From the IMG/VR virus record IMGVR_UViG_2671181111_000004, positions 1-6,187 of that record: 6,187 nt of DNA. The stretch is one strand, 5' to 3'. How positions within the stretch are numbered: the first letter of the stretch is position 1; every line of letters begins with the position of its first letter. Of this stretch, positions 3,031 to 3,575 are shown piece by piece. The position numbers and the translations under genes were made by a program. Source of the DNA: a virus (lineage: Duplodnaviria; Heunggongvirae; Uroviricota; Caudoviricetes). Below the pieces are notes generated by a model, which saw only the letters and a list, made by a program, of their open reading frames with translations, did not search any database and was not told where the DNA came from.

Positions 3031-3355
3031 GATTGTTTTCATTGATAATTTCATTAAGGCGCTCACAATCTATACGGTAGAACATTTTGTGCTCAAGACG
3101 CTTGTTGGTTTCAACCAAAATGCCTCTGGACACAAGATGCTTACGCGCTACAGCCTGTTGTTCAAATGTAAGTCCGGTTTCGTGTTGTATCTCTTCACGC
3201 GTTTTATGTACGCCTTCCGCTGCATGTGCTTTATCCTGCCAGTAAAAAATCTGACCAAAGAAAATAACAGCGTGCGGACTTCCCATGTATTTAACGAGCC
3301 CAGGGTAATAAGCAACCGGATGTCCAAAATCGAGCAGAAGATCAGACGGACGCAT
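2990..3355 (-). CDS. O-like replication initiator, N-terminal winged-helix DNA-binding domain; ORF terminates inside the iteron region
   Basis: ORF of about 121 aa (track 2990..3361 from GTG; ATG 3355 has GGGAGG 5 nt upstream). The pattern (AVIFFGQIFYWQ...TGLTFEQQAVARKHLVSRGIL) looks like a replisome-organiser winged-helix domain. Stop TAA at 2990-2992 lies within the iterons. Confidence 0.65.
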   Translation of the reverse strand: MRPSDLLLDFGHPVAYYPGLVKYMGSPHAVIFFGQIFYWQDKAHAAEGVHKTREEIQHETGLTFEQQAVARKHLVSRGILVETNKRLEHKMFYRIDCERLNEIINENNQFPEMGKPVFGKL

Positions 3356-3575
3356 AGCCACCTCCCAGGCGTTTAAACATTTTTCCGGGCTGAAACGCCA
3401 CCAGCGGATAACTCAGGGTATGAGTACGTCCCTGAACCTGGCAGACAACCTTCTGGCTTTCGGTACTGACCAGGCAAACCCGCAGAACGTAGCCGTTGCT
3501 GGTGGTGAACCACTGCCCCACACGGGGGCAATGGTTGTATCGGTGATACAGGAAATTAACGATGTGGCGGATCAT
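3342..3575 (-). CDS. hypothetical small protein (77 aa), Cys/His-containing, translationally coupled to Rha
   Basis: AGGAGG 7 nt upstream of ATG at 3575; the start overlaps the Rha stop (ATGA). Contains H11, H15, C16, C34 and C45. I recognise no family. Confidence 0.6.
   Translation of the reverse strand: MIRHIVNFLYHRYNHCPRVGQWFTTSNGYVLRVCLVSTESQKVVCQVQGRTHTLSYPLVAFQPGKMFKRLGGGYASV

Follow-up and report, generated by a model that had tools for sequence, protein, structure and literature searches.

RgdR (ECs1581) of EHEC O157:H7 is a non-specific DNA-binding protein of 99 aa and pI 10.1 that acts as an activator of LEE1/ler and a repressor of motility (PMC3378721, PMC10877973), and its RGD motif (residues 20-22) matters for LEE activation (PMC3378721). 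It is the one member of the DUF4222 family (PF13973) that has been studied. The CII protein of phage lambda, another small early product, is a helix-turn-helix (HTH) protein whose gene lies directly after cro, while phage P1 encodes Icd, a small ORF that is coupled to ant in the C4-controlled immI operon and is located upstream of ant. Here we compare these systems with a 77-aa protein encoded between a Rha-family antirepressor-like gene and a replication initiator gene in the window, that is, the whole stretch of 6,187 nucleotides of viral DNA that was analysed. The features on which the comparison depends are the following:

3342-3575, minus strand: coding sequence of the 77-aa protein (phrog_1153 family), with an ATG start, from the ORF listing and a profile match
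3581-3589, minus strand: Shine-Dalgarno (SD) sequence AAGGAGGTG of the 77-aa ORF, within the last Rha codons (ending KEVLP, then stop)
3572-3575, minus strand: ATGA overlap of the Rha stop and the 77-aa ORF start (translational coupling)
3342-3355, minus strand: 14-nt overlap of the 3' end of the 77-aa ORF with the initiator, whose ATG is at 3355-3353
3572-4135, minus strand: Rha-family antirepressor-like gene, likely true start ATG 4135, 187 aa
4190-4277, minus strand: C4 antisense RNA in the Rha leader (Rfam, 80 bits)
4302-4378, minus strand: isrK-like RNA in the Rha leader (Rfam, 62 bits)
2448-3355, minus strand: O-like replication initiator, 302 aa in intact relatives, frameshifted in the window

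A coding gene lacking characterisation does lie between Rha and the replication initiator, translationally coupled at both ends, as the initial annotation had claimed; its strand is minus, the residues H11, H15, C16, C34 and C45 had been placed correctly, and H4 and H52 are present besides. The strong ribosome-binding site attributed to it is AAGGAGGTG (3589-3581 in minus-strand reading), 6 nt from the ATG at 3575-3573. The ATGA overlap with Rha was equally borne out, the Rha TGA (3574-3572) having three bases in common with the ATG of the ORF, and the minus strand reading ...gacAAGGAGGTGctcccATGAtc... across this junction. At the other end, the overlap with the initiator start that had been described amounts to 14 nt for the start that PGAP chose in L001, an E. 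coli prophage of 99.7% identity, and to 20 nt if the GTG at 3361 is the start. The initiator's own SD sequence, GGGAGGTGG, is embedded in the 77-aa ORF, near the 3' end of which ...ctGGGAGGTGGctATGcgtccgtcTGA carries both the ribosome-binding site and the ATG of the initiator. Ribosomes that finish Rha would thus be expected to restart at the ATGA and to make the 77-aa protein, and those finishing the 77-aa ORF would be delivered to the initiator start inside it, so that coupling at both ends would tie synthesis of the 77-aa protein to that of the initiator. No known RNA family was found to overlap the ORF, either in the window or in the four relatives searched, and promoter and terminator counts around it were no higher than in shuffled controls. 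Since P1 Icd precedes ant, whereas the 77-aa ORF follows Rha, the two coupled ORFs differ in their placement relative to the antirepressor-type gene.

The coding signature, absence of which would have counted against the initial annotation, is clear: dN/dS ranges from 0.06 to 0.36 in nine of the ten pairs formed by the homologues of the window, phiP27, ST64B, SfV and mEp460 (56-85% nucleotide identity), indicating purifying selection, and the third codon position takes most of the substitutions among these five. The ORF is a real, conserved early gene of lambdoid prophages. Its product matches the PHROGs family phrog_1153 with an E value of 6.7e-42 (142 bits, residues 1-74 against positions 1-74 of a 74-position profile), a family that has no assigned function. 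The earlier statement that no family could be recognised therefore holds for function but not for membership, as both phrog_1153 and RefSeq WP_000618005.1 contain the protein and neither has a function. With full-length matches and identical neighbours, phrog_1153, WP_000618005.1, orf38 of SfV and mEp460_042 represent the protein's own family; the last three are annotated as hypothetical or of unknown function, and 'hypothetical' is the label for family members in every source. In ST64B (AY055382) and phiP27 a 219-bp gap was left without annotation although the ORF is present. The gene is thus widespread (Stx-converting phages, SfV, ST64B, phiP27) and yet missing from some reference phage annotations: tblastn detected it in 65 phage records, including those of Stx1 and Stx2 phages and cdtI, IMG/VR holds hundreds of matches to the family, and thousands of indexed assembly blocks contain the exact protein. 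The family is narrow: when 1.84 billion cluster representatives were searched exhaustively with its HMM, 26 matches only were returned, mostly fragments, and no distant branch was added to the family; the long multi-repeat matches P0096, P0098 and P0100 from the same search look like chance repeat matches and were set aside. With only 26 representatives the alignments are shallow, and the AlphaFold2 (AF2) models described below are built on little diversity. NCBIfam and PADLOC searches with the protein gave no matches. We note that catalogues already listed the family itself, with no function assigned; the present analysis adds a link to DUF4222 and RgdR, the rule that genes of this type are fused to the starts of replication genes, and the rejection of a metal site.

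We then considered the ORF at 166 loci: 160 came from IMG/VR contigs, five from phages or prophages with annotation, and the last is that of the window. It is intact in all of them with the same junctions, at a length of 74, 77 or 78 codons. At 135 loci a Rha-like gene lies upstream, at the remainder another gene; this upstream gene overlaps the start of the ORF by 4 or 8 nt in 142 of the 166, and among the other 24, seven were inspected and found to have a different upstream sequence that nonetheless ends in the same ...GGAGGTGCnnCCATGA junction. The junction GGAGGTGCnnCCATGAT is accordingly preserved even with a different upstream gene. Downstream, an O-like or DnaD-like replication initiator (phrog_270 and relatives) is always found, and it overlaps the stop of the ORF by 4 or 14 nt at 155 loci. 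These initiators carry at least five unrelated N-terminal segments of 100 residues, and one C-terminal domain, corresponding to 2448-2678 in the window, is common to 149 of 153. As the upstream partner varies while the coupling to the initiator stays, the ORF is to be assigned to the 5' edge of the replication gene rather than to Rha, with which it does not travel. The gene is not obligatory for its initiator type: the initiator C-terminal domain occurs in 96 phage records, compared with 65 containing a phrog_1153-family ORF, and in about 30 records the same initiator type is present without the 77-aa gene, its slot being empty or occupied by unrelated small genes. Two such small genes ahead of related initiators, POCJ13 gp15 and BcepIL02 gp19, were examined as possible family members and are unrelated.

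Start and stop junctions that overlap at both ends, an initiator SD sequence embedded in the ORF and a slot that is filled by unrelated small ORFs in other phages would all be expected if translation alone mattered, the ORF merely passing ribosomes from Rha to the initiator and its peptide being functionless. We regard this as very improbable, since selection acts at the amino-acid level across about 50% divergence of the family, 17 positions of the family alignment are invariant and a further 15 nearly so, and a compact fold is predicted with confidence.

The nature of that peptide had been tentatively read from the spacing of its Cys and His residues. The initial annotation proposed that H11, H15, C16, C34 and C45 might form a small metal-binding fold and that the gene sits where lambdoid phages encode cII-like regulators, which would make the product a zinc-finger-like early regulator analogous to cII. 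Three Cys and four His among 77 residues, the position of C34 and C45 on neighbouring antiparallel strands of the AF2 model and the invariance of C45 speak for such a protein. Alignments of 24-27 homologues, by contrast, leave C45 as the only invariant one of the five proposed ligands. H11 is variable, position 15 is R or S rather than H in most homologues, position 16 is I, Y or T in several, and C34 is replaced by Ser throughout the ST64B/SfV branch, where position 40 carries a Cys instead. Homologues without the Cys/His residues, named in advance as the observation that would count against the metal site, thus exist for four of the five ligands, and the three to four conserved ligands typical of small Cys/His metal-binding proteins are lacking. 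C45 itself is aligned to an invariant Tyr of DUF4222, which points to a position in a core beta-strand and not to a ligand. The model shows neither a knuckle nor a CxxC-type motif but an SH3-like barrel, and Pfam, NCBIfam and the PDB sequences yielded no match to a zinc-binding family. Judged by these alignments, the 77-aa protein is not a Cys/His metal-binding protein.

The placement in the cII slot fares no better. In SfV, mEp460 and ST64B the post-cro gene lies upstream, ahead of the isrK/C4-Rha module, and the post-cro position is filled by separate genes in SfV, mEp460 and POCJ13. The 77-aa protein resembles lambda CII in being a small early-operon product of lambdoid phages, but its model is all-beta in the barrel-forming part and has no cII-type HTH, no Pfam HTH or CII match was obtained, and its gene follows the antirepressor module, at the border of the replication genes, so that the HTH fold, the Phage_CII-type match and the post-cro position of CII-like activators are all wanting. 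A metal-binding analogue of cII is, in our view, scarcely credible.

The AF2 model obtained with the family alignment (mean pLDDT 79, 88-90 in the core) comprises the elements H2-14, E22-25, E30-37, E42-47, E53-57, H58-61 and E67-70, and looks like an N-terminal helix (2-14) followed by a five-stranded SH3/Tudor-like barrel (22-70). The short helix between beta4 and beta5 that accompanies small barrels of this kind is present in the model. The protein is strongly basic (pI 10.0, 9 K+R versus 1 D+E), as is the family in general (pI 10.0-10.6, with 10.4-10.6 in the relatives; 9-13 K+R versus 1-4 D+E). Foldseek against BFVD recovered generic small barrels only (best E 4e-3), and a profile search of PDB sequences with the family gave only chance-level matches. 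Tudor/SH3-like modules that bind RNA polymerase, such as the CarD N-terminal domain, the UvrD/PcrA C-terminal domain and the NusG/Spt5 KOW domain, are 8-15% identical to the 77-aa protein and have no motifs in common with it, nor any sequence-level signal; their likeness to it is generic to the fold.

A more specific resemblance emerged with DUF4222, the only Pfam family to be matched repeatedly (11 of 24 phrog_1153-family members, best E 0.0033, all below threshold). The window protein scores 14.8 bits (E 0.021) against a gathering cut-off of 27 bits for PF13973, whereas RgdR scores 82 bits and the DUF4222 proteins of lambdoid phages 51-57 bits. Similarly, phrog_1343 is matched by RgdR at E 2.6e-11 and by the window protein at E 0.014. 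Comparison of the family with relatives of RgdR alone (hhalign, alignment A3) gave E 0.2, and with a combined alignment of RgdR and lambdoid DUF4222 proteins E 0.011 at a probability of 3.7%, the probabilities over all DUF4222 alignments being 0.3-3.7% only. In control comparisons 5 of 300 column shuffles reached the real score, and the reversed profile scored 9.2 versus 16-18. An HMM built from the RgdR alignment (A3) did not match the family at E <= 10. All of the alignments, whether from hhalign, Pfam or phrog_1343, nevertheless adopt one and the same register.

In this register the AF2 models agree strand by strand, in fold and in the order of elements, RgdR being composed of E23-26, E31-37, E41-46, E52-56, H57-63 and E64-68 plus a C-terminal helix. 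Both proteins are predicted to form an SH3-like barrel of five strands, with a short helix linking beta4 to beta5, and both have G-x-(W/I)-(F/Y) at the start of beta1 and a (M/Y)-P-(L/V)-x-x-F-(R/Q) motif. The additional helix is N-terminal in the 77-aa protein and C-terminal (residues 77-97) in RgdR. We note that the SH3-like fold is very common, so that matching topology could reflect convergence. The residues conserved in DUF4222 (G-D at beta1, the beta3 Tyr and C..P..F.RDF) are only partly present in the 77-aa protein: G20, an aromatic residue at 23, P57 and F61 are retained, while the D is replaced by Q21, the Tyr by C45, an invariant Cys in this family, and RDF by S/P-G-K, and the invariant Cys of DUF4222 is missing. 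Nor is the RGD motif of RgdR-type regulators found, the aligned residues being R18-V19-G20-Q21. Sequence homology of the phrog_1153 family to DUF4222 is thus not established, although on balance we lean towards true homology; on the sequence and model comparisons, the 77-aa protein is most likely a highly diverged relative of DUF4222, or at least its structural and positional equivalent.

The positional side of this equivalence is that RgdR/DUF4222 proteins and the 77-aa protein are small, basic (pI about 10) and encoded by prophages or satellites, and that the gene of each overlaps the start of a replication gene. rgdR overlaps the DUF927 primase/replication gene of its island by 4 nt, in Sakai and in 79 of 81 loci, and a DUF4222 ORF overlaps the start of an O-like initiator in e14, SfII, SfIV, several coliphages, Klebsiella phages and YeP2. 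The initiators of e14 and phiP27 are of the same N-terminal type, and that of e14 is preceded by a DUF4222 gene, that of phiP27 by a phrog_1153-family ORF. A general pattern is apparent, in which lambdoid phages and islands bearing RgdR have small DUF4222-like genes fused translationally to the starts of replication genes that differ widely. Where the isrK/C4-RNA and Rha module is present, the order of genes is DUF4222 gene, isrK, C4, Rha, phrog_1153-family ORF and initiator. A true DUF4222 gene and a phrog_1153-family gene occur together at 102 of the 166 loci; the two are therefore no simple alternatives and may do different things.

The DUF4222 ORF of prophage e14 in E. coli K-12 MG1655 is itself without annotation. 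It spans NC_000913.3 1204001-1204180 (7002-7181, plus strand, in L250), encodes 59 aa from a TTG start behind the SD sequence AAGGAGA, matches DUF4222 with 73.7 bits and overlaps the start of the oweE initiator by 11 nt. The 3' half of ymfM, a gene annotated as a 'cell division inhibitor', contains this ORF in a different frame, and the ORF is the top e14 match of the phrog_1153-family HMM; the YmfM protein frame itself has no similarity to the family, the likeness being to the DUF4222 frame that overlaps it. In its slot the e14 ORF corresponds to the 77-aa ORF, being coupled to the start of a phiP27-type O-like initiator, but differs in being a clear DUF4222 member of 59 aa that lacks the N-terminal helix region. 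Relative to 19 homologues, substitutions in the overlap fall at codon position 3 of the DUF4222 ORF (e.g. 2, 2, 11), which is position 2 of ymfM, and by this codon-position pattern the DUF4222 frame is the one under selection. The published ymfM clone includes the ribosome-binding site of the DUF4222 ORF and all but its last 6 codons, and no frame-specific ymfM mutants were found in the ymfM preprint, so that the SfiC filamentation determinant may be the DUF4222 protein.

In our preferred reading, to which we assign a probability of about one half, the 77-aa ORF is a real gene for a small, basic, DUF4222-like barrel protein that is coupled to replication and has no metal site. By analogy with RgdR, we infer that the protein would act in trans, as a small modulator that binds nucleic acid or protein at the onset of phage replication and is co-expressed with the replication gene. 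The analogy has its limits, as the function of RgdR is known from experiment (PMC3378721) and the phrog_1153 family from sequence and models. As to the target, a host-directed modulator is our tentative preference over an accessory factor for the initiator or origin. A host process such as gene expression or cell division is the likelier target given that three kinds of replication gene, unrelated to one another, are preceded by DUF4222-like genes, and a host-directed role is further favoured by the effects demonstrated for RgdR, which fall on host genes (PMC3378721).

In the alternative, the barrel would bind the C-terminal domain of the initiator or the origin repeats that the initiator gene contains, and would promote or time the assembly of the helicase-loading complex, with 1:1 coupled translation setting the stoichiometry. 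A candidate lambda-like origin is indeed contained in the linker of the initiator gene (2858-3031 in the window), with the following elements:

2858-2902: three 12-bp repeats, candidate origin
2916-2984: three 23-bp iterons with the core GGGAAAnCC, candidate origin
2993-3031: 18-nt inverted repeat, candidate origin, with the frameshift site inside

A basic protein encoded beside these iterons and this inverted repeat would suit an accessory role, as would the near-universal overlap with the initiator start and the co-inheritance of the one initiator C-terminal domain while N-terminal domains and the upstream gene vary; the rgdR and e14-type DUF4222 genes abut replication genes as well. Against it, DUF4222-like genes precede replication proteins as unrelated as O-like initiators and a DUF927 primase, which makes a specific partner less likely; the same C-terminal domain occurs without the gene in Burkholderia, Ralstonia and Aeromonas phages, POCJ13 and 640R1; and the demonstrated action of RgdR on host genes points elsewhere. 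In addition, the Shigella ORF is unchanged where the initiator is frameshifted or hit by an IS, which is weak evidence as it comes from a look-up of the exact sequence. The frameshift in the window is a -1 change in the T run at 3026-3028 (T3 versus T4) that splits the initiator into ORFs of 123 and 76 aa. Three independent complete genomes (L255-L257) have the T3 allele, and in a further one (L252) the initiator gene carries an IS element; a sequencing error was thus rejected in favour of real decay of the initiator. We consider an accessory factor unlikely, and retain the host-directed modulator as the somewhat likelier of the two.

A bolder extension of the host-directed modulator, which we offer as speculative and rather improbable, is that DUF4222 and the phrog_1153 family, as sister families, make up one class of phage and satellite effectors that are co-translated with initiators and act on the host at the start of replication, for instance by blocking FtsZ-dependent division. 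If so, the real e14 SfiC/'YmfM' division inhibitor would be the DUF4222 ORF lacking annotation and not the annotated frame, the pleiotropy of RgdR would be a by-product of the same activity, and with the 77-aa protein the class would gain a second member that had gone unrecognised. The link to RgdR and DUF4222 provides a testable handle in the form of DNA binding and of a host phenotype upon expression, and should these proteins act on the host, virulence regulation (as with RgdR in EHEC) or cell division could be affected.

Further observations concern the region upstream of the 77-aa ORF. The C4 and isrK RNAs form, by analogy, an antirepressor control module like P1 immI, and in the window a longer open frame upstream of the Rha ATG at 4135 covers these RNA genes. 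In the 99.7%-identical E. coli prophage there are three tandem C4/isrK copies (2111-2299, 2767-2955 and 3423-3611), which underlie coding sequences annotated as 'ash family protein' and the 5' end of a 'Rha family' gene, and ST64B (L002) has C4/isrK at 2201-2389. The presence of RNA genes beneath 'ash' coding sequences implies that part of the Phage_ASH-type annotation may consist of translated RNA genes. A bona fide DUF4222 ORF (Pfam 51-57 bits) is found at 1987-2169 of ST64B, where the annotated 5' extension of the Rha/antirepressor gene covers it in a different frame, and such ORFs are hidden likewise in SfV, mEp460, cdtI and Stx phages, the covering genes being sb41 (ST64B), orf37 (SfV) and mEp460_041. 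The long annotated Rha N-termini (MNSLT...) are probably wrong, and a fresh look at the ymfM frame as annotated, and at the 5' ends of several 'Rha/ash' genes, seems warranted.

The window as a whole is a decaying prophage, as is also seen at its left end:

78-284, plus strand: C-terminal end of an IS66-family transposase, adjoining the 3' end of DnaB
288-1562, minus strand: DnaB helicase gene, 424 aa versus 463 aa in intact relatives

The shortened DnaB indicates that the replication module was truncated by IS insertion. Genes for a Gp49/RelE-like toxin and an HTH antitoxin (about 4450-5081, plus strand) diverge from Rha, and NinE, NinB and a phiTE_015-like gene (5123-5996, minus strand) converge on this pair. 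The window lacks the cI/cro/DUF4222 segment that the operon usually has. The location of nin genes upstream of the replication module is an unusual order and suggests rearrangement. The window is 99.9% identical to CP032513.1, and public databases list the exact 77-aa protein under Shigella.
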